NCBI GenBank assembly: GCA_000934665.2
Contig: JYFJ02000197.1
Location: 186,001 to 248,428 of the forward strand
Origin: Catajapyx aquilonaris
Taxonomy: Eukaryota
DNA: 62,428 nucleotides
Direction: 5' to 3'
Below, piece after piece: positions 1-60,815 of the stretch. The notes under the pieces are model-generated. The model did not search any database, had not been told where the DNA came from, and saw nothing but the letters and a program-made list of their open reading frames with translations. The translations under genes were made by a program, and so were the position numbers. Within the stretch, counting starts at the first letter, position 1, and each line of letters begins with the position of its first letter.

Positions 1-3000
1 CCAGAATTTGATGTGGAAAGAACGTCTGTGTTTGGGCAAGATGAACCATGCGTGACTCACAGAACTCGTATATATATGAACAACCGGATCGATGTTCAAG
101 AAAGGTTTTTCCTCCAAATACAAAGGTCGGTTCCCTCTGTCTAAACTTGCATCCAGCTACATTATGGTTGCGTATGAGGGTGAGAAACGCTGGCAGCTGC
201 GGTTATAAATTCCAGCAATGAACGAAATGAATGCGTGCTCCGGTTAATACCCTCTCTTCTGATGAGCTGCGAAATTCCCCCAAATTATTCACGCGTATTC
301 CCCAATCTTCCCCCCACACTAATTCTCCCTTTGGCTTTCCTATCTTGTACATATAGGATTGCCGGTAGCCCTCGGGGTTAAAAGGGTGGCAGGCAAAATT
401 AGAGGTGACCCCAAAGGTCGCCCCGGGGGGTGTGAATATTGCCGGAACTAATCCTTCTTAATTCCAGATAGGGGTGACCACACGTCTGATCCTATTCAGG
501 GTGACAACGGGGTGGGGAATAATATTAAGAAAAAAAATCAGATCAACAAATCGGGCTTGATATTGACATTTGCAAATCATTCCTATTCTCCGAAGAATCC
601 ATGCGTTGATGAGATCTTCCACTTCAACATCTCACGCCGCAAACGAAATAAATCTCAATTCTATTTCCCGAGGTAGGAGATAGAAGGGCTAGACTAGAGG
701 GAAAAAAAGCTGCAGTGATCCGAACCAATTCAGCCCAAACCCTGTCAAACTTTCTCTGCTGATCAGGTCGAAAAGCGAAGGCACGTTTCTCTTCTCCAAT
801 AGAGCATCCCTGAACGTTAAAAAAAAGAAAAAGGGTTTTCCGGATTTTCTCGGGCAATCTCGCAGCAGCCGGCCAGCAAGGAGATTGATTGATCTCCAGG
901 GTTCAAAGGCCAAAGCAGACGACTGATCGTCTCCTGTCACGTGCTGATTGGTTGCAACTCGTCCTTTCCTGATTCGTAAAAAAAATCACTTTCCTAGGAT
1001 TGTCCAATACATGTTCACGTTTTTTTTCTCGATTTCACATGAGACATGTTGCGTGTTGGAGTCTCAAAAAATGCGCCAGAATCGATTTTCGTTATCATCT
1101 TTCCCCCATATGGTCTCTTCAGAAAATATCGCAGGGGATGGGGGAGGGATCACGCGCGCTTCATGGGGTGGTAGCAGCATTAGACGTTCATAGTTGCTGA
1201 GTAATTCAGAGGGGTTAAAATCTCCAGAGGAAATAGAGCACACATACTCAATTAACAAAAAGGAAGCAAGTTCATTCGATAGTGTCATAAAATTTTCTGT
1301 GAGAAAAATTACTTCCCATCCGGAATGAACATATTATTTACAATAAATCATCCTTCAGGTACTATTATTCGCAATCATTTCATGATCCTAATTTCAAACA
1401 AATTCATCGGAATGCAACGATATGACCCTATAGTCGACTCCCTTTTAAACACAAACATTTTCCATTCCCGAGTACAAGGCCTAGGAATGGCGTGGTACAG
1501 GACAAAATTAATGATACACCTGAAACCCGCCCCCACAGACCCTGATTGATCCCCATTTTGATGCTAACGAGCCAAATGTCATTGCCGCCAAATGACGAAT
1601 TTGTGGCGTATACCAATGAGCAAGTGGATTAAACCACGGGGGGGCCTTTGAGCTGGTTCTGGGCAGAGACAAAAGGATGTGACTATAGGGTTTAGTTTCC
1701 CCCCCTCCCTCCCCTACCCCTCTCTTTTCTCTTTCTCTCCCATATTCCCCAACCCAACATGACGCCGTCTGCCCGGGCGTGTTTGCGCCACATGCTGCAG
1801 AACCCAACACCCTCTCCATTTATCACCACAGACAGCCCCAGGAATAATAGCCGCACTAACCAAATCCACCCCATAACCCAGCCCACCCAGCACCCACACA
1901 CTCACGCCCACCCACACACCCACTCACCTACCTGATCCCTGTCGACGGTACATATGCAATAATTATGCATCGATTCTGAAATGCACGTATGAAAAAATGG
2001 GTAAGCAAACTATCACCTGTTGTGGAATTCATGGAATTATGGTACTTTTTATCAGCGTCATAACAGGATGTAGAAGTAATGTCAGAGAATTAATTTACTT
2101 TTTATATGGAGATATATGCCGTATGTGCATGACTAGGTGATAATACCTGTATGTTCACTCAAACTAATTACTCTCGGTTGGTTCCGAGTGGGCGATGAAA
2201 ACTGTCAGAGAGTCAGTTGAAAATATAATATTTCGGTGCTTGTTTTTTTTGCGCTTATATGGGCATGGAGCACAACATACTGTCTGGTGAATGCGGATTT
2301 TCGGAATCAATAATGAATTCAATTTAGGATCTTGAAACAATAGGGCTATAGTTGCAGCACTCTCTCATCACAAACACTGCATAGAAAAGCAGATTTTCAT
2401 AAAGATAATGAGTAAAAACCATACATTTGAAACCATGGAATATACCAAATTGGATAGTTGGTGCTGTCCACTTTTTTATTTGAAAAGGGAAAAAGAAAAA
2501 GTCAAAAAAATTGCGTCGATATGCCCAATTAAAAATTTTAAAAGCAAAACAATCAGAATCGCATATATGACATAATTATGAGGGTTTAAATATTGAAACA
2601 TCCTAAGATAATCAGCTTTTCCAGAATTTATTTGCGGGACTGTATAACTGATTTGAAGTAGAAAATTGACTTGACCCCCAGAAAAGAGTCCCGGACTGTC
2701 CAAAAAAGTTTTTGTTACTTAATTTTGACAAATATTTGACTCCGGACGTTCGTATTTCTGGTATTCGTGTTATTTACCATGAAAACTACTCTTGGAGCAG
2801 TGATATTATGATATAAGTAGACCCGAGTAGACAATTAAATTAAATGACATTTCATTACGTCCGAAGAAATAACGTTCAGTTTGATAAAATGTGTCAGTAA
2901 AAATATTGTTACCAACAAACTTTCCTGACAAGCCATAACAGAGGCCCCCCGCACCGATACATTAAGGTGGCAACAAATGTTCATCTTACTTATATTGATT

Positions 3001-12000: not shown

Positions 12001-15000
12001 AAAATGCCATCAACTCGCACTTTGGTGCTCGGGGCCAGCCCCTGGGCTGTTGGCCCCAAGCTGAACTGCATCTATAGGGGGAAAATTGGACATTCTTATA
12101 CAAAATAGATCACCTTATCAATTGTGCTAATAATTTTTTGCGGTAGTATTACTATTTGAAAGTAATGTTGACGTTGTGGAGTTTTAGTGCTTGTGCAAAG
12201 TCGGTTGCGAGTGAGTAATTGCCGCATTAATTAGGACAGGTAATAAACTTGGCTGGATGGTACTCGTATTTCAAAGCAGGCGTTTAAATCCACCCCCTTT
12301 CCAACCCTCGTCCCCACACCCTCTAACCCAAACATGGTCAGGGTTTTGTTCCTGAATACCAGAGCACCAGGGGTACACATGAATTTCTGTACCGTGTCCA
12401 TTACAAAATTCCTGTTGTCCATTACCACTGGTACAGACTCGTCAGATGGGAATGCCCACCTTGTAAAATATGCCAGCCTGAAGCGCATTTTTAAAAACTA
12501 CAAGCACGTTAGAAACGTCGCTAGCAAACGGTACAACATTCATATCATATTTGAGGATTCCGTTGCACGGAGGGATCTGAATAAAATTCTACGGATACTA
12601 CCAAAAATATTTTCAAAATTAGTCTGTCCTGATTTTATATCGTTGTAAAACTTGCCAGCACGTTACTTTCTCATACCACAAAAATGTGGCCTAGCAAATT
12701 GCGATCTTGCAAAATCAGTTCGCAGTTCGACACCTCAGGCCTAATAATTTGAAAGCGCAAGGTTTTGCAGAAAAGTCCTCACCATATTTCCCTTCCAGGC
12801 ATTCTCTTCAGATTCGATAACAGTTCTGGATGAGGATTTTGTTTGTGCTGCTGCAGAGAAGTTAGTAGTAGGCCTTTCATTTTCGCCTTTGATAGCACAG
12901 CTCCATGATTGTCGCCCGTACTCTGTGCAGTTTTTTTTCTCCTATTTTTATTGCCAAAATGAGAAAAGTAATGTAATTTCCCAGTTGGCATGTCAAAGTT
13001 CGAAACAATAATAACTTTCCTTTAGAAATTGTCTTGAAAAAACTTTCAGTAGTTTCAGCTGTCGCACAGCAATAAAGAGAGACGGGATGGCATACACTTT
13101 GTGACCCGAGTATGGACAGGTCAGAGGTCAGATATTAGGAAATTTATTCGGTTTGCGCATCATTAATTTTGACTGTGTAAGTGTAGAATCTTTGTAGGAA
13201 TAACTCACAGGGCCGGCCATTCCCCAAATTATGTTTGTCATACCAAGGAGAAAACACGGCACTTTCGGAAGATGATTTGTCCCGGAATGTCCGTGGCGCA
13301 TCCCCAAGGGCCATTGATCACATTGCCTGGGGACAACTCCCCCACCCCTTTCCTCTCCATCCCCCTCTCCATCCCTCCCTCGACACCCACATACCCACTC
13401 GACCCGTTTCCCCCCACCCAGTGCAGTGATGGGAAACAGACGAGTGGTCGCCGGATTGGCAATTAGCGCCACCGATACAAAGTGGAATTGCTCCGGTGAG
13501 GGCGCCGCCATCCGGTAGACTCAAGTGACCATTGTTGCGAATACATACCTCATGTGAAAATATGTACTCTCTCCCTCAAAAGAACCGGGTTTCGCTATAC
13601 GTTTCATGTCAGGCTCAGAGGTGCACTTTGCATGCAGCAGTATTTTCACGCTCTAAGCATCAAGCAGCATAAGTTCTCATAATTACTGCCCATTTGAACA
13701 ATGTACTTGCAACAGAATTACATACCTCCGACTGCTTCGGATTGCCCTTAATTACCTCCTAATTGGCAGATCTACGTAGGGTCCGCACTACTCTTTGAGC
13801 CCCTTCAACACTAAAAAGCTTCACTCCCTAGGAAATTACAGGCAGATGGAAACTGGCGCCTGGCCCTACTAATTCGAGACCCGCCCACTGCAGCCAAAAC
13901 GCGGTTCTAAATTACGACTTACCCAACTGTTATACACTAATCAAGGTGAGGGCGAGGAAGAAAACAGTGGAAGTAACCCAACCATTTACACATCCCAAAA
14001 AAAAAAAAAATCCTCCGGGCCTCGAGCTTTTCAAAGGAAGTGGTGGCGGCCATCTTGGAGCGGAAACTGCGGTACAAATGCGCACGTGTTAAACGGTTAT
14101 TTATTGCGTCTAGTAACGTGCGCCTGCAAGAAAGATAACCGCAAGCTTGCAAATGTCTGCAAAGTGCAGGCTGCTAGGGAAAGTGCAAAATTATGCAGAG
14201 CTACAATAAAACGTGGGGAAGTTGCGTCGTTTCGCAGAGAAATGTGTCAGGGTTGAAATAATTCTAGATATCGTGTTGAAATTGTGGAACATGGTGTCGT
14301 GTAAAACTAGGGACCTTTTTTAGATCATGGCTGACATGTAAGCATTATTTCTGGTATGGATTAAGCATCACATTGCTAGTAATTTAAAATCATGAGTTCC
14401 AAATCTGGTCTGCTGAACGAAAAAGCCATTCGGAAAAGTTCATGGCGAACCGCCGAAATCATATATCTTGCAGCAGTACTAGCTAAAATAATCAATTCAG
14501 AGTCATATTAGTGTCACCTGCAGTCTGCCAAACCTCGGGAGATTCAAAACTTGTGTAAGAAAAATGGGCTCCATCCGTGTAGAAGGTGCTCTTTCCAAAG
14601 CCACTATCCCTCTTTTCTAATGGCCAACTTCCTTCACTTTCCAGCCTCGTCTGCTCTTTATACAGCACATCCTGGGCTTAAAAAGAGTATCCAACATTTC
14701 TTCCCCTTGGTCCATCCTTCCCTTTTTTTCATCTTAGATTCCCCCACTTTTCTGCAAGCTCCATCTCCTGTGGAGGCACCTTAATGGTCAAAATCTTGGA
14801 GTCCACTTCACTCTTGACCCTCCTTCATTAGTCCACAAGAAGCGAGCACCAGGCGATAATGGCTCTTGCCGCCATCATCAATCTCTAATAAGATGATGGC
14901 TCCCACGAGAGAGCCTGGTCCAAAGTGCTGGAGGAAGCTTTCCTTTATTAGCCAGAGAAAGGTTTTAGTGATATCTAAAATTCAGTAGGTCCGACAGTTG

Positions 15001-29500: not shown

Positions 29501-30510
29501 GTGTTGGCCAGACTGTTTTAATTGGAAGCTGATTTGACATAATAAGGAGCATTGCCCTGTCAAATATTGGGAACCATGCAAAAGGTGTCGATGAATTTAT
29601 GGAAGGGGGAGGGGGGGGGGAGACAGTCTACTTTTTTTTCCACGTTGAAGTGAGATACAGTGCACCACTCTGTACAGTGATGCTTGTGACAGCTGCCTGC
29701 GCCCGTGTTTTCTAAGTTCCTCAAGTGTTACCATGTCCATTGAATTCTGTCACATCTGAAGATGATAATGGCGGCTCGGAGCAAACCCTTCGGTGCCGGC
29801 CCCACTTTTCTTTTCACCATTTCCCAGCCCCCCATCCGATCAGAAGGCCACGCTCTAATTGTCGCAGCCGCCATTATTGTCCTCGGATGGAGCGTCACGC
29901 CCCACGGTCGCGCTCATTTTCCGCTTCGCTACTCCTATTACTCCTATGTCCCAAAATAAAGGGTAGGTGCAGGGGGGGGGGGGGTGGAAGATGGTAAGGG
30001 GGGATTCAGATTTATATACTCGGGGATCCCCATCAGTCCATCCTTTCTCGCTGGTCGAGCTAGGGATAACTAATTATATGGATAGGGTGGTCCAGCACGA
30101 AAGCAGTGATTTTATATAGGTGAGTTTGGTATACTAGTGAAATAGGTACGACGATCTGTTTTTATATCAACCAGTGGTACTGTAACTGTAAAACTTTAAT
30201 AGTACAGCACTACCACACTGGCAAGTTGCAATCCGGCGGAGTATTCTCAACTGTCGGGGAGGAACTAGGACTCACGTACTTTCGCGGGTTGGGAATGGTC
30301 CATTTGTAACCCCCGAAAGCATGTGCACTCTGGTTTCTCCCCCACAGTTGAGAACACGCAACTTGCCAGTGCACAGTTACTGTGGTCGGGCTAATACATC
30401 TGCTCCATATGATGCGTAGGTTCAAGTTACTTAGTAAACACAACGTTAATTACTGTCTTGTACTTGCAGAATTGCCTTCAAGTGTAGGATAATAATATGC
30501 TATAGTCGAA

Positions 30511-36230: not shown

Positions 36231-36303
36231 GGGGGCGTAGCTCACATGGTAGAGCGCTCGCTTAGCATGCGAGAGGTACCGGGATCGATACCCGGCGCCT
36301 CCA
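36231..36303 (+). tRNA. tRNA-Ala(AGC)
   Basis: 73-nt cloverleaf. Acceptor stem GGGGGCG/CGCCTCC carries the G3:U70 alanine identity pair and discriminator A73. D stem GCTC/GAGC; anticodon stem CTCGC/GCGAG with AGC at 36264-36266; T stem CCGGG/CCCGG with the ATCGATA loop typical of metazoan tRNA-Ala(AGC). Confidence 0.97.
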
Positions 36304-50225: not shown

Positions 50226-51968
50226 ATGGGCTCCTTACCGCTGGTGCCGCTGGTGACACTGCTGGTGGCGTGGCTGCCATGCTGGTGTGTCGCCAACAAG
50301 GGCAGCCGCTGCGAAGAGATCAACATCCCGATGTGCCGAGGAATAGGGTACAACCTGACCTCGATGCCGAACCAGTTCAACCACGACACGCAGGAGGAGG
50401 CAGGGCTGGAGGTGCACCAGTTCTGGCCCCTGGTCGAGATCCAGTGCTCCTCCGACCTCAAGTTCTTCTTGTGCTCCATGTACTCCCCGATCTGCATGGA
50501 GGACTACCACCAGCCGTTGCCGGCGTGTCGCAGCGTGTGCGAGCGCGCCAAAGCTGGTTGTGCCCCCCTGATGCGGCAGTACGGGTTCGCCTGGCCCGAG
50601 CGGATGAACTGCGACAAGCTGCCCCTGTTCGGTGACCCACACCATCTGTGCATGGACGCCAAGAACGGGTCCGGCCCTGAGGAGCCGGCGACCCCCTTCC
50701 CCAACGTGCGTCCTCCCTCCACGACGCGCCCTCGCACTGGCCAACAGGGGCCCAGGGCCAAGAACCACCCTTGCCTGTCCAGCCGAGAAGGGTGCCGCGA
50801 TATGAGGGACAAGCAGAGCTGCGAGTGCCGGTGCAACGGACCATTGATCAACATCACGCAGGACAGCCCCTGGTTCAACCGCAGCGTGACCGTCTACAAT
50901 CAGGACAACTGCGGTCTGCCTTGCGGCGGAACCTTCTTCGAGCCTGAAGAGAAGGAGTTTGCGCAGTGGTGGATCACTCTGTGGTCCAGCCTGTGCTGCA
51001 TCTCCACCCTGATGACTCTGACCACGTTCCTGATCGACATGGAGCGGTTCAAGTACCCCGAGAGGCCCATAGTGTTCCTGTCGGCCTGCTACTTCTTAGT
51101 GAGCGTGGGGTACTTGATCCGGGTGATCCTGGGTCCGGAGGCCATAGCCTGCGACGGAGGCATGATCCGGTACAACTACACGGGCCCCACCTTCTGCACA
51201 GCCGTCTTCCTCTTGATCTACTTCTTCGGCATGGCCAGCTCCATATGGTGGGTGATCCTGGCCCTCACCTGGTTCCTGGCAGCCGGGCTCAAGTGGGGCA
51301 ACGAAGCCATCGCCAGCTACTCCCAGTACTTCCACCTGGCCGCCTGGCTAATACCGACGGTCAAAGCCACGGCCGTCCTCCTGATGAGCTCCGTGGACGG
51401 CGACCCTGTGGCAGGCGTGTGCTACGTGGGCAACCAGAACGTGGACAACCTCCGCGGGTTCGTTCTGGCCCCCCTGGTGGTATACCTCCTTCTGGGCACC
51501 ACCTTCCTTCTGGCCGGATTCGTCAGCCTGTTCCGCATCCGCAATGTGATCAAGCAGCAGGGACGCACCAAGGCAGACAAGCTGGAGAAGCTGATGATCC
51601 GCATCGGCATCTTCAGCGTCCTGTACACGGTACCGGCGACCATAGTGATCGCGTGCTATTTCTACGAGTCGCAGCTACACGACGTGTGGATGAAGCCCCT
51701 GGTGTGCCACTGCGAGGAGAAGCAGAAGCCAGTCTACTCAATCCTCATGCTGAAGTACTTCATGGCTCTGGCCGTGGGCATAACCTCCGGTGTGTGGATA
51801 TGGTCGGGCAAGACTCTCGAGTCGTGGAAGCGCTTCTACCAGAGACTGACCGGGAAGCCCACCTACCAGCCCCAGCACAGGACGCTCAAGCAGGTGAACT
51901 ACCCGGCCACGAGTGTGCCTAGTCACGTGGGAAGCGCTCCCAAGCAGCCGCCCCTCAGTCACGTCTGA
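50226..51968 (+). CDS. fz2: Frizzled-2 (Fz5/8 subfamily) Wnt receptor, 580 aa, intronless CDS
   Basis: ATG at 50226 starts a signal peptide (MGSLPLVPLVTLLVAWLPCWCVA); the ORF-track start at 50178 is a TTG. The protein has a Frizzled CRD (CEEINIPMCRGIGYNLTSMPNQFNHDTQEEAGLEVHQFWPLV...), seven TM segments with RFKYPERPIVFLS, WFLAAGLKWGNEAI and KLEKLMIRIGIFSVLYTVP, the Dishevelled-binding KTxxxW motif (KTLESW) and a C-terminal PDZ ligand LSHV, as in Fz5 and Drosophila Fz2. Confidence 0.97.
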   Translation: MGSLPLVPLVTLLVAWLPCWCVANKGSRCEEINIPMCRGIGYNLTSMPNQFNHDTQEEAGLEVHQFWPLVEIQCSSDLKFFLCSMYSPICMEDYHQPLPACRSVCERAKAGCAPLMRQYGFAWPERMNCDKLPLFGDPHHLCMDAKNGSGPEEPATPFPNVRPPSTTRPRTGQQGPRAKNHPCLSSREGCRDMRDKQSCECRCNGPLINITQDSPWFNRSVTVYNQDNCGLPCGGTFFEPEEKEFAQWWITLWSSLCCISTLMTLTTFLIDMERFKYPERPIVFLSACYFLVSVGYLIRVILGPEAIACDGGMIRYNYTGPTFCTAVFLLIYFFGMASSIWWVILALTWFLAAGLKWGNEAIASYSQYFHLAAWLIPTVKATAVLLMSSVDGDPVAGVCYVGNQNVDNLRGFVLAPLVVYLLLGTTFLLAGFVSLFRIRNVIKQQGRTKADKLEKLMIRIGIFSVLYTVPATIVIACYFYESQLHDVWMKPLVCHCEEKQKPVYSILMLKYFMALAVGITSGVWIWSGKTLESWKRFYQRLTGKPTYQPQHRTLKQVNYPATSVPSHVGSAPKQPPLSHV

Positions 51969-52118
51969 CAGAGTGAGGACCCCCAGTTGCAAAGCGTGCC
52001 CACTCCCCTCCTAGGGGCAGCAGGCTCAGGGGCCACCCCGGGGCATGGGAAAGGGATGGGCAGCGCCTTTAGCAACGTGGAGGGTACACCCACTCTTAAT
52101 AACTATGGCCAGTTCTAG
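51969..52118 (+). other. fz2: Candidate stop-codon readthrough extension of fz2 (49 aa) overlapping a long stem-loop
   Basis: Stop context is TGA-CAG. The frame stays open to TAG at 52116-52118 (QSEDPQLQSVPTPLLGAAGSGATPGHGKGMGSAFSNVEGTPTLNNYGQF). Positions 51970-52013 pair with 52046-52096. Confidence 0.6.
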
Positions 52119-52542
52119 CTAGATATCTAACTAGCAGTGCTTGCTGATGCGATTGCCCATCGCAGATATGTATACATACATATACTTGTGGTCCCTCTCT
52201 GTCTGCTGACACATTGCTCTGGAGATTTGCTCTGGTCAGAATTATGTATACGATACGGTCGTGTGGTTTTGTGCGGGAAAAAATTGTTTGTTATTGCGTA
52301 CAGTGGAACTCGATTCATTCAAAATGGAAATATTTCGTACCGAGAATTTGGCACCTATTCAGCTACTGCGTGTGGAGAGTCCTAATGCTACAACTTACAT
52401 GTCATTTCCAGTAAGATTGCGGCTTTAGAAATTCTTGCGAAAATTAATAATTAATTAATCGGACTTGTCATGTAGATCTGCTAGTCATAAATTAATGAGG
52501 TAACTCTCCACGAGGGCAGCAGGCATAGGGACTGCAGACAAC

Positions 52543-52548
52543 AATAAA
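52543..52548 (+). promoter_or_regulatory. Candidate polyadenylation signal for fz2
   Basis: First AATAAA I noticed downstream of the CDS, with a U-rich tract near 52618-52630. The real 3' UTR may be longer. Confidence 0.3.
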
Positions 52549-55500
52549 AGATACTCAGAGGACTTCAAGCATACATATACACACATCCTCCCCATCTGTA
52601 CAGTACACATAAAAAATGTTTTCTTTTTTTGTAATTTTGATACCAGCTTTCGATGGAGCTATGATACGTACTCGGTGTTATATACATTGTTGGACATTTT
52701 TTATGCGTCAAATTCTTCGATGTGTCCTTCCCCAAGTCATTTCAGTCCATCTATTTGGTCAAGACTGACTGTGTTGTTAATTCGTTGTTCCTAATTTCGT
52801 CAGATTTTTTTTTAAACTCCTATTTCGCCAACTGTGTGTTCCCGTCATGTGGTGCAAAGATGTGAGTGCGGATTCGAAAAGATGATGGAATCGCAAGAAA
52901 TGTTTAACATAACTAATTGAACGAACGCATCTTCTGGAATCAGCAAAAAAAACGTTTGCAAACGTTTTTCGTGTGGGAAAATATGTGCCATATTTCGTAG
53001 CTTCTCTAACTGTATAATAATAATACATTAAGTTATTACAGACATATCCGTTATGCAATCACTTTACACAAATGCATATCAAATCTGAAAAATTTTGTTA
53101 CATAATTATATGATCAGTGAATCGTTTTCAGTTGATCAGCAAATCATTGTTATTGTCTGTTTGCCAACGGTCGATATACGTAAAATTGGTGATAGAGTAA
53201 TAATTCTACGTAACTTACAGCCCATGAGAGTTGACTTAAGGTCTCGTTACATTGAGTGGAAGTAACCAACTTTCTCTGCATAATAAGCGTGAAAGACGTG
53301 CAGATGGTCCCATGTGCATTAATTACCCTCATTTACGTAATTAGCTGATGTATTCCACGAATCTTGGTTGCATGGTACGTTTCCTCTTTAAAATGTATCT
53401 ACCTGCTCATTAACGCCACTCAAATTTTTTTGCCCAAATATTCACATTTTGCTCGGTTTCTGTCCACGACTGTACGGGTTATCAGAAAAACGAATCAGCC
53501 CCAAGCGAAATAACCATTTCCGACTACCAGCCAAGCCGTGTTAGTAAAGCACGTAATTATCGGTCTTACGTTCCTGAGGTGTTGCGCTAGAAAACATAAT
53601 GCGCCCTTTATCGATTATTGAAATTCACTTACCAACTTTACCCAATTCCTACACATTTTTGCTCTTACCTGCCCAAATATTTTTTCACCAAAAAAAAATT
53701 ATTGATCTAATTAAGAATCTGGCCAAACATTCACGAACCAAACCGGAAAAATTGGGGAGGAAAAATATTATACATAACGGAGGTGGTCCTTTGATAACGA
53801 AATAGCCCGCCCCTCTTCCTTTCTGAATCATAAATTCCCTTCACTTCCAAAAGCACGCGATCAACAGAGCAGATTGAGCTACCTCCCACCCCCACCTCCC
53901 TGCTCCTCCCCCCTTAAATCAATATCGGCATGTGCGCTCCCATACCCACTCACTCAACCCAACATGACATATTTGGTCTCGGCAACAATCGTAAACAAAA
54001 TAAAATATACATGAGTACCAGTATGGGGGGTGGCGAGAGGTGGGGTGGGTGGGTGGGTGGAAAGATACGGATTTGCGATTCGCGTTAATTGCGGCACCTA
54101 TAAAATGGCTGGCCAGACCCCTTTTTACGATGCGACACGTTTATGACCACGCGAGTCACTGAAAATGGTGGCCCATGTGAAGATTTCCATCGTTGTTCCC
54201 AGCTGGTGGTATCGATTAGTTGATATCCAATTGTTGTGTAGAAACACGATTCCTCACCTGGTTGGTCCGGTGGCTTACCATTGCAAAATGGGGCAGTTCT
54301 TTGGCAGATGACCCACCAAATGTTACAGTCGTTGTCCCCAATTCGACCCTCCCTTTTGCCCTATACGGTGCTGATTAAACCCAGTCTGTCCCCTCCTAGT
54401 CTTCCAAAAGGGTGGACAGTTGAATGCACTCGGTATGGTCCGCACGCCCCACTACATCTCAATACCCCCCATGGCTATCCTGGAAACAAAGGGTTTGGTC
54501 GGATTGTCAACCCTGTGCGACAGGGGGACAGGGGGCGGTGGAAGGGGGAGTCAAAAGGCCATTCATTCCAGTTTTCCAAGAGAGGGGGGGGCGGGGGGCG
54601 GAGAGAGAGATGGAAGAAGGGGTTGAATTGTTGTCAAAGTGTAACAAGCATGGGAAAAGTGGGTCCCAAAATAATTATTTTTGCCTGGGTGTTTGAGTCC
54701 GTTGATCCTCAGGATCTGGGCTAAATTGAGCAAAATGTGATTTCAACAAGCTTTTCGTTGCCTAATGACTATTGACACTCCAAAATTGAGCATAAGAGTT
54801 AGCACACAGCACCTAAATTTTTCGTACAATTTTGTGTCTGGGTAACAGTTATTCGAAAGTAAATTGCGCAACATGTTCCCCCCTTCTTTTCACCCCGTTT
54901 TTAACGTGCTCCACTCGAGGGAATGAGAAACCCAGCCGGACTCTCCAAGTCCCACTCATCCTGTGACACATGACAAGCAGATGCTGTAGAACCAGTAGGT
55001 GGTAAATTGCAAACCTGAAACTCTCAGTAGAAAAAAAAAGATACAGACCTGTGTCCACAGTGCGTAAAGTAGGGGGAAGGGGACATACTTTTTATGTGTA
55101 TCCAACAGCCTCTCCGATTCGCATCTCGTTTCGGAGACAATTATCCAGTTGATTCAGTGGAAGAGGGGCTGATGTAATCTGGTAGGGGTCGAAAATGCAT
55201 ATAAAGAGTGGAAATCGATAGGGATGAAGAGGATGGGGGCAAGCTTTCAAACTGAGAATTTTTTTAAAAAAAGTAGTGTTCGCAACTTTTCATGATTAAG
55301 CTGTAGGTGTGTATCTGGTGGCTAATGATGTTGTGCTAAAAAGTATGGAGGCTAGCGCACATGGGATTTGATGTTGACATTTTGAGGACGAATCGATGCG
55401 GGTGTGTATATCCCCAGTCGTTAATTTCACCATGTGAATATTCGTGTAGTTTAAATATTGGTCTGTGGGCTGGTGGTCTGATTAAGGGTCATGGACTAAT

Positions 55501-58500
55501 TATCTGCCATTTTTTACTACCATAATTTTGTGTAGTAAGTTGGATACTTCCACCATGGGCTAAAGTGCTAGTCATCTTTTTTTAAATTATTGTTTTACCA
55601 GCTGCATCTAATTTATTTGCATCTGTCATTATATAAATTTGTTGCGTATAAATAATACCTGTTCATTTCCAGGCGTATAAAATAAGATGTATACGATGCG
55701 GTCTGTGTAAAAGTGAATAGTTCTAAAAATATATATCTAAAACATTTTAAAGCTTATTCTGTTCATTTTGACAGGGTATTTTCCAATCTATTGTACTTAA
55801 TGCTCGTGTTAACATATCATACTGTATTTCGCATAAAAATTTGTCATCCTTTGTAGACCATATTTCTTACAACAAACAGGGTAGTCTGGAAATGTTCTTT
55901 ATGTGAATAATCTCTGTTGTACATAAACGCCGAAAATAAGTCACTGCATTAAAAGTGTTCTTTATATCTAAAACATTAATTTCAATCCTTGCATTAATGT
56001 AGGTGTCACAAATGCATGAAACCTCGTCCCAGCATTGTTGTTGTCTAGAAGTCAGTTTCCTCTCTGCAGGCCTATTCTTTCCTCCCACATTTCGGGAGCG
56101 AACTGGAGTGCATCACGCCAGGCCACTGTTTGTTTGCCTGGATGGCAGTTTGACAAGACATTCACCGTCCTTCCTTCCTTTCAGGTTCTAGTGGCTAAAG
56201 CAAAACAAGGGAGCTTCTTCCATTAGCAGACCAAATTGTGTTTCATTGTCACACTTTTCCGAGTTCTTATTGCTGATATTTTATGGGAAAAACTGAATAT
56301 CATACTTCAATAACTGTTAACGACTTCTTCGGTAACAGTAAGCGACATTGGATTAAATTTTCAAAGCATATATTTGTCATTTTAGAATTATCTAGTAACA
56401 AAGAAAACGCTCTGGGGTGTTGTTAAGATTGCAATGGCAATGTAACAGAATGTACTGTGCCCATGAGGGCAATGATGATTTTTCTCAGCTAACTAACATG
56501 CCCTTCATAGATTTAAAAAAAATCAATTTGTTAATGACCAAAATAACCAGCCACATAAATAAGTGGAACATCTGGATATTTTCTGAGCAGCTAGCTCATT
56601 CCGCGGTTGCCTCAAGTCATTCTCTTCCTCTCTTCTTGGCCTTTGCTTTTCCTCAATACCGTTCATTCTGAATGAAGATCTGCAGATTACAAAGGCAGCT
56701 GTTTACATTCTGAGGCTCAATAAATATTAACAGGTAGACATTTAAGCCAACATCCGTGATAATGTTTCAAGATAGAACAACAATAAATACAGTTAGAAAA
56801 TCCTCACCTTGTAAATTAATATCTGGAGCTGTTTAACTGTTTCAGTTCAATCTGTAAATATATCCAAGCAGAGTATAAGCTTGAGGCATGAAACTGCTGT
56901 ACTGGAGGATTATTTTATGTCGCATTGCAGTGACCCGTGGGCCACGTGAAGACTTATCGTGCGAACCAGTATGCTGTAATGAATGCTGGTATTTTTAGAA
57001 GAAGGTGATTTTCCGCATACTTTACCTGCTGCAAGAACTGAGACTCTGATTTTCTGCTGCAGTGCTCGTAATGAGCTACCCGCTACCATGTCAAGTGCCT
57101 TTCTTTATTAAGCTGCTTCCACTTCCTGTCTACTAATGCTTAACATAAGGCAAAGGCATGAAATATGAAGCTACACTAATTTTGTGATAATGAATTGTAA
57201 TTAAAACCAAAAGGGTGAGTGTTTCTTTCTTGCAGTCGTCATTGTCATCCGATCCGAGGTGACCAGAAACCAGTCGAACCATTTGGCCTTTCTTAGCAGG
57301 CATGTGTTGACCTCTCCACTAAAAGGAAGCCCCGTGGAGTTGGTTCGTATTTCGTTTCCACGTTTTGCATCGCTCCTTCACCATACCAGAATGACAGGCA
57401 GAGAGGCTGGTGCCAGTATAGTCTGAGTAGAACAAAGGTTTTTTTTTTCTTCTTTTCGGCGAAATGCAGACGGTATATTGTGATTATCTTTGCAACTAAC
57501 TCGAGAAGATGTGAATAAGGACACGCGTGAACATTTCGCCTACATCGCGTTACATTTGAAACGTGTTGATGAAAATAGTGTTAGAAGAGTTGTGTGTATA
57601 CGATTTCAGTCATATCAAGGGCCTGAATATACAATCAGAGTCTACTGATGCAGACTTGAAGTCACCACGATTCCAAATGTTTACTGAACAGAGCTGGCAC
57701 ACCCTTGTAGGGCACTCCATCTGCATCTTATTTTATCGGTGTGATTCCGGTGTGATCTGACACAGGGTAATGGCAACATACACTGGTGCCACTTGGTTTT
57801 AAGGATGAATACGGTTTGTCCCTTGATTTCTACGATGTGGACTAGATGACATCTTTGAATTTTTGACAATCTCTTTTGGTAGCACTAGAACGGAAGAATG
57901 TCACAATGCCGGAAAATTTATAATGGTCACCGCCCAGTAGCATTCATCTTCCTATCAGCATTCGGCTAAATGACAAGATTTGAGGCCTGCATAAGATTAA
58001 TACATGACATATGATTGTGAATTACTATCATTCAAGAATATGGTTATCACCGGAAACCAAATTATTTCCAGGAATAATGCCAAAATACTGTGTAGAGCAA
58101 AAGACGTGCGGAAGCTGTACATTTCCGGCACGTAATTTAAATAAACCTCCAAACAAATTTTCATATTGTCAGCCTGGAAGTAGTTAATTAGACTAATGGA
58201 TACGTTTGAATTTATACATTCCTCTCATTCTCAAAATGTTTGTGGCTTTCAGAAGCCCTCTCTAAAAAAATGGGCTGTTTTGACCTGCTGTTGACAAACC
58301 TGTTATCAACGGGAAATGTTGATTTAAATTTTCCGCTTCTGTCTCTTAAGTTTAGTTAAGATAATACGGTTCAAATCCGCTCTGATAGAATCTTCAGCCT
58401 TTGTCTTGGTTCAAATGTGCGCGGCGGATAATGATGTCACCTTTCCATCTGGCAACCCGTGCACCATACCACCTGGCCACCCTGCTCTACATTTGATGAT

Positions 58501-59672: not shown

Positions 59673-60815
59673 TGTAACCAGGGGTCTTTCGTTGTTTGTT
59701 TTACTTTCCTTGGTTATCGTTGCTCAGACCCCTGTGTTGCCCCACGGTACTGTAAACGAACCGAGGTGTAAATAAAGCTATCGGTGCCTCGGTAAGGGCA
59801 GTCAGTGACTAGCAGTCCAGGAGGAAGGTTCTCTGAAAAGGGAGCTCTCCCCTGCGACTAGTGGGCTCACTGATCCACTTGCCACTCCGTAGTGAAAAAT
59901 AACATTCTTGTGTTTTATTTCATACAGAGTACGGCATAAATAGTAAACTGACCAGGGGTCATAGTTGGGTAGGCGCCACCCAAGTATACTCCCGGCAGGA
60001 GGAACGGATACCTGGGCCAGCAGGCTCGCGCCGCCTGGGTCATCCAATCCGACTATTTATTCCGCTTAGGCAATCCCATACAACCTCCGTTAATAATACT
60101 TACAAGCATCATACTTGGGCCAGCAGGCCGCGCCGCCTGAGTATACGTAAGTAAGGTAAAGGGAATGATGTCTGGGCCAGCAGGCTAGCGCCGCCCGGGT
60201 TATCGGACCCAATTATTTCGGAAGTGCTTCCTCCTCACGATTTAAGAATCGCCGGGAGCCGCCCGGACCAGGGCGGAGTAGGTGCCTATCAGTCAACACC
60301 TTGTGTACCTACTCCTGTTACCTTTGTGATCGCCGGAATGTAGAACCTGACGTCACAGTGCTGGAAATATTCGACGCGACAATTGCAGGACAAAACCTGG
60401 ACAAAACTCTCAATGTGTATGTTGCAGTCAATCTCGTCAAGTTGATGTCTACCCGACTGTATCTGTGTGATCGTTTTGACACATTTGAGCAGCAAGCACT
60501 TGTTGGCATTGACCCTTCATGGCCCCTGGTGTTGCCTCTATTGGTCACTGCCAGCCCATGGACACTTCTATCCCAGCGCAATAGAAAAGGCCGATCCGTT
60601 ATTCCTTCCCGCAGCGGCGCTAGTAAAACAATGGAATCTCGCTGTGCGTGTCGTTCATTCGCCATAACAACTATAGCGACGATAGCGACCCTCCTCCCGA
60701 TTACTAGGTTTATCAGCGACCCCCCTCCCGATTACTACCGATCACGGTCTTAGCCGCTACCGATAGCGTATACCAAGATGGCCGCAATATGGAGATGTTC
60801 ACGATCCAGGTCACA
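59673..60815. mobile_element. Solo-LTR-like element (1143 bp)
   Basis: TG...CA ends form imperfect inverted termini (TGTAACCAGG vs reverse complement TGTGACCTGG, 8/10). Flanks acgtgg/tcatgg match 4/6, a possible decayed TSD. AATAAA occurs on both strands (59771 +, 59914-59919 -). Internal tandem duplications are present (23-bp unit at 60684-60706 and 60715-60737). No coding capacity or PBS seen. Confidence 0.5.

Follow-up and report, generated by a model that had tools for sequence, protein, structure and literature searches.

A long, bulged hairpin filling the linker behind the leaky stop codon of an arthropod frizzled-2 gene: possibly a lineage-specific modulator of read-through

The 3' end of a frizzled-2 (fz2) gene in Catajapyx aquilonaris raises the question of what a long RNA hairpin might be doing immediately downstream of a stop codon. 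The gene lies in a stretch of 62,428 nucleotides of contig JYFJ02000197.1 (hereafter the window), and the original prediction on this DNA held that the stop is leaky, that an in-frame extension follows it, and that the hairpin is the cis-element controlling read-through. The protein of 580 residues combines an Fz cysteine-rich domain with a Frizzled seven-pass region (Pfam PF01392 Fz, 1.9e-33; PF01534 Frizzled, 1.1e-132), and its closest relatives, at 65-70% identity, bear the names frizzled-2 or frizzled-5. Among arthropods the relatives are called frizzled-2, and outside the arthropods frizzled-5 or -8. Its domains and relatives identify it as an arthropod Wnt receptor, Frizzled-2, of the FZD5/8 type, and the name fz2 by which it had been designated from the DNA was a fair one.

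The stop codon of this gene, TGA at 51966-51968, is followed by a C at 51969, and the sequence is indeed of the leaky UGA-C type that had been proposed. Beyond it the reading frame remains open for a putative extension of 49 codons (Table 1), and the remaining two frames of the same segment close after 14 and 1 codons, respectively. Taken by itself, the coding signal of the extension in the window is weak: its GC3 of 0.67 lies between that of the CDS (0.87) and that of the UTR (0.38); its codon log-odds are best in frame 0 among the three frames yet negative, at -9 bits; and an open frame of at least 49 codons arises in 573 of 5000 shuffles (11%). Given this weak signal, the case for read-through rests on the terminal motif of the extension and on its orthologues.

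A metagenome scan with the window protein recovered 47 loci, none of them closely related to it, and the stop could be located in 44. Four lineages, namely the window, L002/3, L006-8 and L021-24, end in ...PLSHV-TGA-C, and these, unlike any other locus, are followed by in-frame extensions of 49, 29, 32 and 52 codons, respectively. In all four the extension ends in N-Y-G plus two residues, the terminal motif being LNNYGQF in the window, ISNYGPI in L002/3, LSNYGPI in L006-8 and LSNYGPV in L021-24; the N, Y and G are invariant and stand at a fixed distance from the second stop. The linker between the stop and this motif comprises 22-45 residues and varies freely in length and sequence among the lineages. 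None of the seven other loci with proteins ending in SHV, THV or SHC possesses such an extension; their stops are TGA-A, TGA-G or TAA, and their nearest named proteins are non-arthropod or remote. A further insect-like locus, L001, has an apparent intron before the last exon and is uninformative on the extension.

Over the last exon L021-24, the cockroach- or termite-like copies, are 89-90% identical to the Blattella protein. Among L021, L022/23 and L024 all five substitutions within the extension are at third positions and synonymous, and past the second stop the sequences diverge with indels. When a profile of the four extensions was compared with longer proteins, the sole match was P0148, a related gene call of cockroach/termite-like character; a single complete codon distinguishes it, and it shows W at the stop, reflecting either a TGA called as W or a true TGG. 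A protein search limited to residues 520-630 gave 33 matches, of which none covered the extension, and a profile search of 1.84 billion representatives gave three, all of them unrelated repeat proteins. In a quick, midpoint-rooted maximum-likelihood tree of this single gene, L003 and L006 fall within the winged insects, and the window protein falls outside that clade (support 99), adjoining the branch to krill, millipede and onychophoran.

The stop of fz2 is also present in the published catalogue of fly and mosquito read-through: Data S1 of Jungreis 2016 lists it as a candidate with TGA-C in both Anopheles gambiae and Drosophila melanogaster, with the fly entry also standing in the column for the 2011 list, and gives the two stops as orthologous and of the class 'Ancient'. 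The proposal of a leaky fz2 stop is strengthened by this listing and by the coding behavior of the extension in other insect lineages, and on these comparisons fz2 read-through is well supported. It is probably old and common to insects, and for the species of the window we infer it from the shared signature. Read-through of fz2 as such was already known from flies and mosquitoes; what seems to be new is its reach beyond Diptera and the common terminal NYG motif. In the literature covered by the search, no report of wider fz2 read-through or of a shared NYG terminus came to light, and fz2 goes unmentioned in the main text of PMC13170385, PMC5100048 and PMC13278127.

The segment between the stop and the terminal motif is predicted by RNAfold to form, on the plus strand from 51970 to 52096, a single hairpin of -63.7 kcal/mol, whose centroid structure is nearly identical to the MFE structure and whose pairs are retained in a 301-nt context. 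The two arms given in the original prediction are the same as those in this fold, and their mutual alignment could be reproduced. The main stem has 41 pairs, 40 of them Watson-Crick and one G-U, which from base to apex are distributed over helices of 6, 2, 4, 3, 5, 4, 2, 6, 4 and 5 bp, the longest uninterrupted run being 6 bp. Its nine interruptions consist of six pure bulges of the 3' strand (five of 1 nt and one of 3 nt), two pure 1-nt bulges of the 5' strand and one 1x2 internal loop. Bulges had been described as recurring every 3-6 bp and lying almost all on the 3' strand, which is roughly right, the measured spacing being 2-6 bp with 6-7 of the nine on that strand. Global alignment of one arm with the reverse complement of the other contains eight one-base gaps and three substitutions, the latter being transitions. 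At the base, a 6-bp helix (51970-51975 on the 5' arm) is followed by a bulged A51976, and the upper helices begin at 51977; the stem base thereby begins 1 nt after the stop and the other 35 pairs begin 8 nt after it. A hairpin truncated to 51977-52090 still folds with -54.8 kcal/mol. As had been noted from the sequence, the hairpin is nearly coextensive with the extension, covering 127 of its 147 nt, and the LNNYGQF codons lie just beyond its 3' end. A search of the window with the hairpin arm, allowing up to three mismatches, found no second copy, and on account of this uniqueness a repeat family within the window was rejected.

Table 1. Coordinates, in the window, of the fz2 gene, its putative read-through extension and the associated hairpin
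Feature	Coordinates	Strand	Basis
Frizzled-2/FZD5-8-type receptor, single-exon ORF, 580 aa, C-terminus ...KQPPLSHV	50226..51968 (including stop codon)	+	ORF list, Pfam, relatives
Leaky stop context UGA-C	51966..51969	+	Sequence; same TGA-C after PLSHV in L002/3, L006-8 and L021-24, and in the fz2 entries of Jungreis 2016
Putative read-through extension, 49 codons, QSEDPQ...TLNNYGQF	51969..52115	+	In-frame translation
5' arm of hairpin, 44 nt, C-rich	51970..52013	+	Pair list
Apical region: 10 unpaired nt, then 8-pair mini-hairpin (52024-52044)	52014..52045 (32 nt)	+	RNAfold, pair list
3' arm of hairpin, 51 nt, G-rich, bearing most bulges	52046..52096	+	RNAfold, pair list, arm alignment
Terminal peptide codons LNNYGQF	52095..52115	+	Alignment to (L/I)SNYGP(I/V); N, Y and G invariant, at equal distance from the stop of the extension
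TAG closing the extension	52116..52118	+	Sequence; GC falls from 0.645 to 0.42 right after

How far this fold exceeds chance depends on the measure applied. Dinucleotide shuffles of the 127 nt gave z -2.63, with 2 of 200 shuffles as stable, and z -2.65 in a second run (14 of 1000); for the 150 nt of 51969-52118, that is the extension plus its TAG, the corresponding figures are z -1.87 (39 of 1000) and, in another run, z -1.81 (10 of 300). In two sets of 1000 dinucleotide shuffles, a continuous stem of at least 41 pairs, with gaps of up to 3 nt, was reached by none of the first and by three of the second. Because C prevails in the 5' arm and G in the 3' arm, nulls confined to segments were used as well: dinucleotide shuffling inside each arm and the apex gave z -2.99, with 4 of 700 shuffles as stable and a single one attaining the stem, and codon shuffling inside each part gave z -3.39, with none of 700 as stable. 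The excess over composition is moderate by MFE and stronger by stem topology. Comparison with dinucleotide-shuffled controls, which the original prediction had proposed as a check, accordingly has a mixed outcome: stems of at least 41 pairs are rare (0-3 per 1000), but the MFE z is modest (-1.9 to -2.7) and is matched by three frames of the CDS.

These three frames emerged among 46 that tile the fz2 gene (60 shuffles each), where they are on the plus strand and have z values at or below that of the hairpin (-2.9, -3.3 and -3.6). Across the whole window, a scan of 4964 frames of 127 nt on both strands, with a step of 25 and a register set on the hairpin, which favors it, ranked the hairpin second most stable of the 2482 plus-strand frames by raw energy and 21st of the 4964 after GC correction; three other hairpins, at 30245 (z -9.1), 13395 (z -6.4) and 59770 (z -4.9), are far stronger. 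The minus strand of 51970-52096 is itself more stable than the plus strand, with -70.2 kcal/mol and z -3.88 (0 of 200 shuffles), and over this interval it has 7 G-U pairs compared with 2; given identical pairs, the two strands are about equal (-63.7 versus -62.2). In sum, the hairpin is real and non-random, yet it is no unique object in this DNA. Covariance models of Rfam matched either strand of the hairpin at chance level only (19.5 bits where the gathering score is 100, and 17.6 bits where it is 67.9), on which ground a known RNA family or miRNA was rejected; over the whole window a single match attained the gathering score, and this was a tRNA.

If the hairpin were an integral part of fz2 read-through, it might be expected in the lineages that share the leaky stop. 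Relative to shuffles, the extensions of these lineages fold with z +0.13 in L002, +0.49 in L006 and +0.30 to +1.15 in L021, L022 and L024, and frames of 0..100 and -30..100 around the stops of the three lineages have z values of -0.03 to +1.47. No exceptional fold was found in any of these three PLSHV-TGA-C lineages, and their stems cannot be aligned with those of the window; in L022, two synonymous changes alter a small local stem that is predicted in L021. In the catalogue of Jungreis 2016 neither the fly nor the mosquito entry for fz2 carries anything in the RNAz-structure column. The RNAz test frame described there comprises the stop and 97 nt, and in a frame of 100 nt even the hairpin of the window vanishes (z +1.69), since such a frame excludes its 3' arm. 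The hairpin exactly fills the variable linker, extending from 1 nt after the stop to 52096, with the conserved terminal codons at 52095-52115, and on this comparison it appears peculiar to the lineage of the window and to lie outside the conserved read-through signature. The idea that it is the cis-element controlling fz2 read-through is hence not supported, given that three lineages keep UGA-C and a conserved extension with no exceptional structure and that the RNAz column of the catalogue is blank; the conservation that would have spoken for the hairpin is absent from the three lineages, their z values being about zero or above.

Given that the hairpin is peculiar to one lineage and the read-through is conserved, the former may tune the latter without being needed for it. 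We tentatively favor the explanation that it is a lineage-specific 3' structure raising or tuning read-through, which we regard as plausible, if not quite probable; both the formation of the hairpin in the mRNA and its effect on the rate of read-through are here inferred. At the leaky UGA-C a fraction of the ribosomes would decode UGA with a near-cognate tRNA and thereby add 49 residues, so that the PDZ-type C-terminus ...LSHV would be buried and ...LNNYGQF would become the new end. If the spacer argument of Firth 2011 is extended to this mRNA, a ribosome holding UGA in its A site would enclose ~8 nt downstream of the stop in the mRNA channel. These nucleotides take in C51969, the 6-bp helix at the base of the stem and the bulged A, and the basal helix would consequently be melted. 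What is left of the structure, ~35 pairs (-54.8 kcal/mol), would then be positioned at the channel entrance, where it might slow the ribosome or disturb termination and in this way favor near-cognate decoding. The proposed geometry would be that of kelch, VEEV and MuLV, whose stems follow a spacer of 8 nt.

In favor of such a modulating role are the excess of the structure over composition, the independent support for read-through of this gene and the position of the hairpin at a site chosen a priori, 1 nt after the UGA-C stop and with its upper helices beginning after 8 nt. Its general premise, that 3' stem-loops stimulate read-through, was already part of the original prediction and is borne out by published work on headcase, kelch, alphaviruses and dfr. 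A spacer of 8-12 nt between leaky stop and 3' stem is the rule in Firth 2011 (PMC3159437), whose examples come from alphaviruses, a number of plant viruses, kelch and headcase. According to PMC13170385, unrelated stem-loops beside a leaky stop raise read-through in S2 cells in proportion to their stability, with distance also mattering, and the proximal stem-loop of dfr raises it in both S2 cells and larvae. As unrelated stem-loops work in S2 cells, a hairpin so stable and so placed would by analogy be expected to act whatever its origin. Jungreis 2016 further reports that structures associated with read-through are gained and lost while read-through persists, which is the pattern found here. 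Counting against a role in modulation are the lack of conservation in the three other lineages, the modest MFE z, the absence of a signature specific to the mRNA strand, the stem base lying 1 rather than 8 nt after the stop and the weak codon signal of the extension. To these may be added the several stronger hairpins elsewhere in the window, from which it would appear that this genome makes long inverted repeats readily.

This last point leads to the main rival explanation, namely a non-adaptive inverted repeat produced by template switching, small inverted duplication or drift in a poorly constrained, GC-rich, low-complexity linker. The hairpin would then be tolerated since only the terminal motif matters, and any effect on read-through would be incidental. 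We take this to be a distinctly possible explanation, though short of probable. It agrees with the presence of several stronger hairpins in the same 62 kb, with the absence of the hairpin from all three other read-through lineages and with a linker whose length and sequence vary freely; moreover, the de novo origin of perfect RNA hairpins through template switching has been reported (10.1101/2021.04.15.439925 / PMC8794818). The near-equality of the two strands when given the same pairs, with the minus strand better overall, and the Watson-Crick nature of 40 of the 41 main-stem pairs are likewise what a repeat formed at the level of DNA would display. It is less easily reconciled with the differences between the arms, where eight single-base gaps are accompanied by only three substitutions. 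Neutral decay should yield more substitutions than indels, and each single-base indel within the extension would break the frame leading to the conserved terminal motif. Pairing built up by substitutions on a coding sequence whose frame must stay open fits these differences better than does the decay of a duplication. In addition, the stem is exceptional even under nulls that preserve local composition and codon content, and it stands exactly between the stop and the conserved motif. The original prediction had read the bulges as a sign of selection rather than of recent duplication, and this reading survives in part: the predominance of gaps in an open frame sides with it, but the almost pure Watson-Crick pairing and the lack of any advantage of the mRNA strand, as in a DNA-level repeat, do not.

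Other explanations would place the function of the hairpin outside the act of read-through. It could be a dsRNA platform acting on the mRNA and not on the ribosome, whether as an ADAR substrate, as a Staufen-type localization or stability element or as a Drosha/Dicer-type cleavage site, and as such it would exert its effect chiefly in those transcripts, the majority, in which the hairpin is part of the 3' UTR. An imperfect duplex of ~41 bp is long enough for dsRNA-binding domains, the structure is well-defined in that its centroid is close to the MFE fold, and the lack of any perfect run above 6 bp would limit RNAi-type processing. We nevertheless consider this improbable, since neither strand matches an Rfam family, miRNAs included, the hairpin has no counterpart in the other lineages, and one-sided single-base bulges are unlike those of miRNA precursors. 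G is the 5' neighbor least liked by ADAR, and it is a G that precedes the A of the UGA stop; editing of UGA to UGG is thus an unlikely source of the extension, and as such it was rejected on this general ground. The higher stability of the minus strand invites the alternative that the selected structure belongs to an antisense transcript, especially as a second minus-strand hairpin is adjacent, opposite the final 150 nt of the coding sequence: at 51820-51946 the minus strand folds with -65.7 kcal/mol (z -3.98 or -4.83 in two runs) as compared with -45.2 (z -1.75) for the plus strand, and the two intervals have the best minus-strand z values among the 46 frames of the gene region. Such an origin is nonetheless very improbable in our view, in that no Rfam match accompanies it, the G-U excess of the minus strand is small (7 versus 2) and the complement of a C-/A-rich coding strand is G-/U-rich and pairs easily. 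Finally, an in-frame UGA with an adjacent stem-loop recalls the neighborhood of some selenocysteine codons, such as that of SEPN1 (Firth 2011), with the hairpin as part of the insertion signal. This alternative borders on the impossible, as the UGA is listed as read-through in the fly/mosquito catalogue (Jungreis 2016) and no SECIS was detected at E <=1 in 51900-57000 (5 kb after the stop) or at the gathering score in the window; selenocysteine recoding was rejected on account of the latter result.

Returning to modulation of read-through as the favored explanation, it may be carried one step further. In this extended form, a read-through predating the winged insects swaps the PDZ-type ...SHV end of the receptor for a conserved ...NYG(P/Q)(I/V/F), and in this lineage the evolved 41-pair hairpin sets the amount of the alternative receptor or makes it conditional. 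We consider this combination rather unlikely as a whole; if true, the hairpin would serve in the cell as a riboregulator that governs which isoform of the Wnt receptor is made. What is known already is that 3' stem-loops can act as read-through stimulators, and what is new is the hairpin of the window, unusual in its one-sided bulges, long, fitted exactly to the linker and putative in function. If it should be inert, it would exemplify the ease with which unconstrained GC-rich linkers give rise to long stems, and would counsel caution in structure-based prediction of read-through. In either event it offers a natural test case for a question now current in the field, whether cellular read-through depends on 3' structures or whether these are accessory tuners, gained and lost over time, for in one and the same gene the read-through signature occurs both with and without a strong structure. 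As for the receptor, fz2 read-through had earlier been predicted only from alignments of fly and mosquito genomes; the combination of UGA-C, in-frame extension and NYG terminus in three further insect lineages and in an arthropod placed outside the winged insects by a quick tree points to an alternative Wnt-receptor C-terminus of great age, by which the PDZ-binding end would be hidden.

Among the closest known systems is fz2 of D. melanogaster (fz2-RB, FBtr0075028) and A. gambiae (AGAP010442-RA) in Jungreis 2011/2016, which is the orthologous gene and shares with the window the TGA-C and an in-frame conserved extension. According to Data S1 of the 2016 paper the extensions are of 112 codons in the fly and of 45 codons in the mosquito, the latter followed by a second read-through of 21, as against 49 in the window; the blank RNAz entries of both have to be read with the 100-nt frame in mind, which would miss the hairpin of the window too (z +1.69). 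In sequence character the hairpin resembles those ascribed to template switching by Monttinen and Loytynoja (PMC8794818), which are near-perfect Watson-Crick inverted repeats that arise de novo in the DNA and, as here, favor neither strand; the arms reported there are perfect, whereas those of the window differ by eight one-base gaps.

The read-through gene dfr/vvl (PMC13170385, 2026) resembles the window in having a proximal stem-loop beside a leaky stop, and in the account given there stability and distance set the rate of read-through and heterologous stems work. It differs in its UAG stop and in a stem-loop that lies within ~60 nt and is nearly invariant in 31 dipterans. The screen described in the same paper used frames of 60 or 80 nt, loops of 3-10 nt and bulges of at most 2 nt, limits under which a 127-nt hairpin like that of the window would be missed. 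The stimulators assembled in Firth 2011 (PMC3159437), from alphavirus nsP3/nsP4, tobra-, peclu-, furo- and pomoviruses, kelch and headcase, consist of a UGA, often UGA-C, followed after a spacer of 8-12 nt by a stem with an asymmetric 1-nt bulge; as described there, the stems are of 10-14 bp, close loops of 50-270 nt and are backed by conservation and compensatory changes. The hairpin of the window departs from this type in being one continuous stem of 41 pairs with nine interruptions and a 32-nt apex, in having its base 1 nt after the stop and in being known from a single lineage. It resembles this type in following a UGA-C and in having asymmetric 1-nt bulges, and its helices above the basal 6 bp begin exactly 8 nt after the stop.

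The read-through extensions of Frizzled-2 in four lineages share a common end, (L/I)(S/N)NYG(P/Q)(I/V/F)-stop, whose positions in the window and in the metagenome Frizzled-2 loci of three other insect lineages (L003, L007 and L021) are listed in the table. The linker upstream of this terminal motif varies freely in both length and sequence among the four lineages. The NYG-type motif looks like a second conserved C-terminus of Frizzled-2, which takes the place of the PDZ-type ...SHV end; no published description of it was found in the literature searches made. P0148, a public cockroach/termite-like Frizzled-2 gene call recovered with a profile of the four extensions, has W at the stop position and reads on to ...LSNYGPV. 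This W reflects either a TGA taken as Trp by the gene caller or a true TGG in that copy. Relative to L021, of the cockroach/termite-like group, P0148 has one Gln codon fewer, which is an in-frame difference.

Positions of the Frizzled-2 extension terminal motif and of the tRNA gene
Feature	Sequence	Position	Strand	Support
Frizzled-2 extension terminal motif	window	52095-52115		
Frizzled-2 extension terminal motif	L003	3364-3384		
Frizzled-2 extension terminal motif	L007	3520-3540		
Frizzled-2 extension terminal motif	L021	2497-2517		
tRNA gene	window	36231-36303	+	Rfam, 56.1 bits

A quick tree places the Frizzled-2 of the window on a branch outside the winged insects, and none among 5.8 billion clusters exceeded ~70% identity to the protein (50226-51965); the source organism appears to belong to an arthropod lineage thinly covered by the protein collection.

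Antisense to the last ~150 nt of the fz2 coding sequence, the minus strand of 51820-51946 is predicted to form a 45-pair hairpin (-65.7 kcal/mol; z against shuffled sequence -4.0 and -4.8 in two runs), as against only -45.2 (z -1.75) for the sense strand. The minus strand of 51970-52096, the span of the predicted stem-loop just after the fz2 stop, likewise folds better than the plus strand, giving two adjacent antisense hairpins.

Elsewhere in the window there are two more strong predicted structures, a pair of hairpins at 13395-13521 (-; -67.7, z -6.4) and one long hairpin at 59770-59896 (+; -56.0, z -4.9). Neither matches an Rfam family at the gathering score, the tRNA gene being the sole such match across the window. 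At 30245-30355 (+) there is a near-perfect predicted hairpin of ~110 nt (-69.0 kcal/mol, GC 0.54), likewise without a match in an Rfam search and single-copy within the window. With z of -9.1 and none of 200 shuffles as stable, it is statistically far stronger than the fz2 hairpin; it resembles either the precursor of a microRNA or a foldback repeat.
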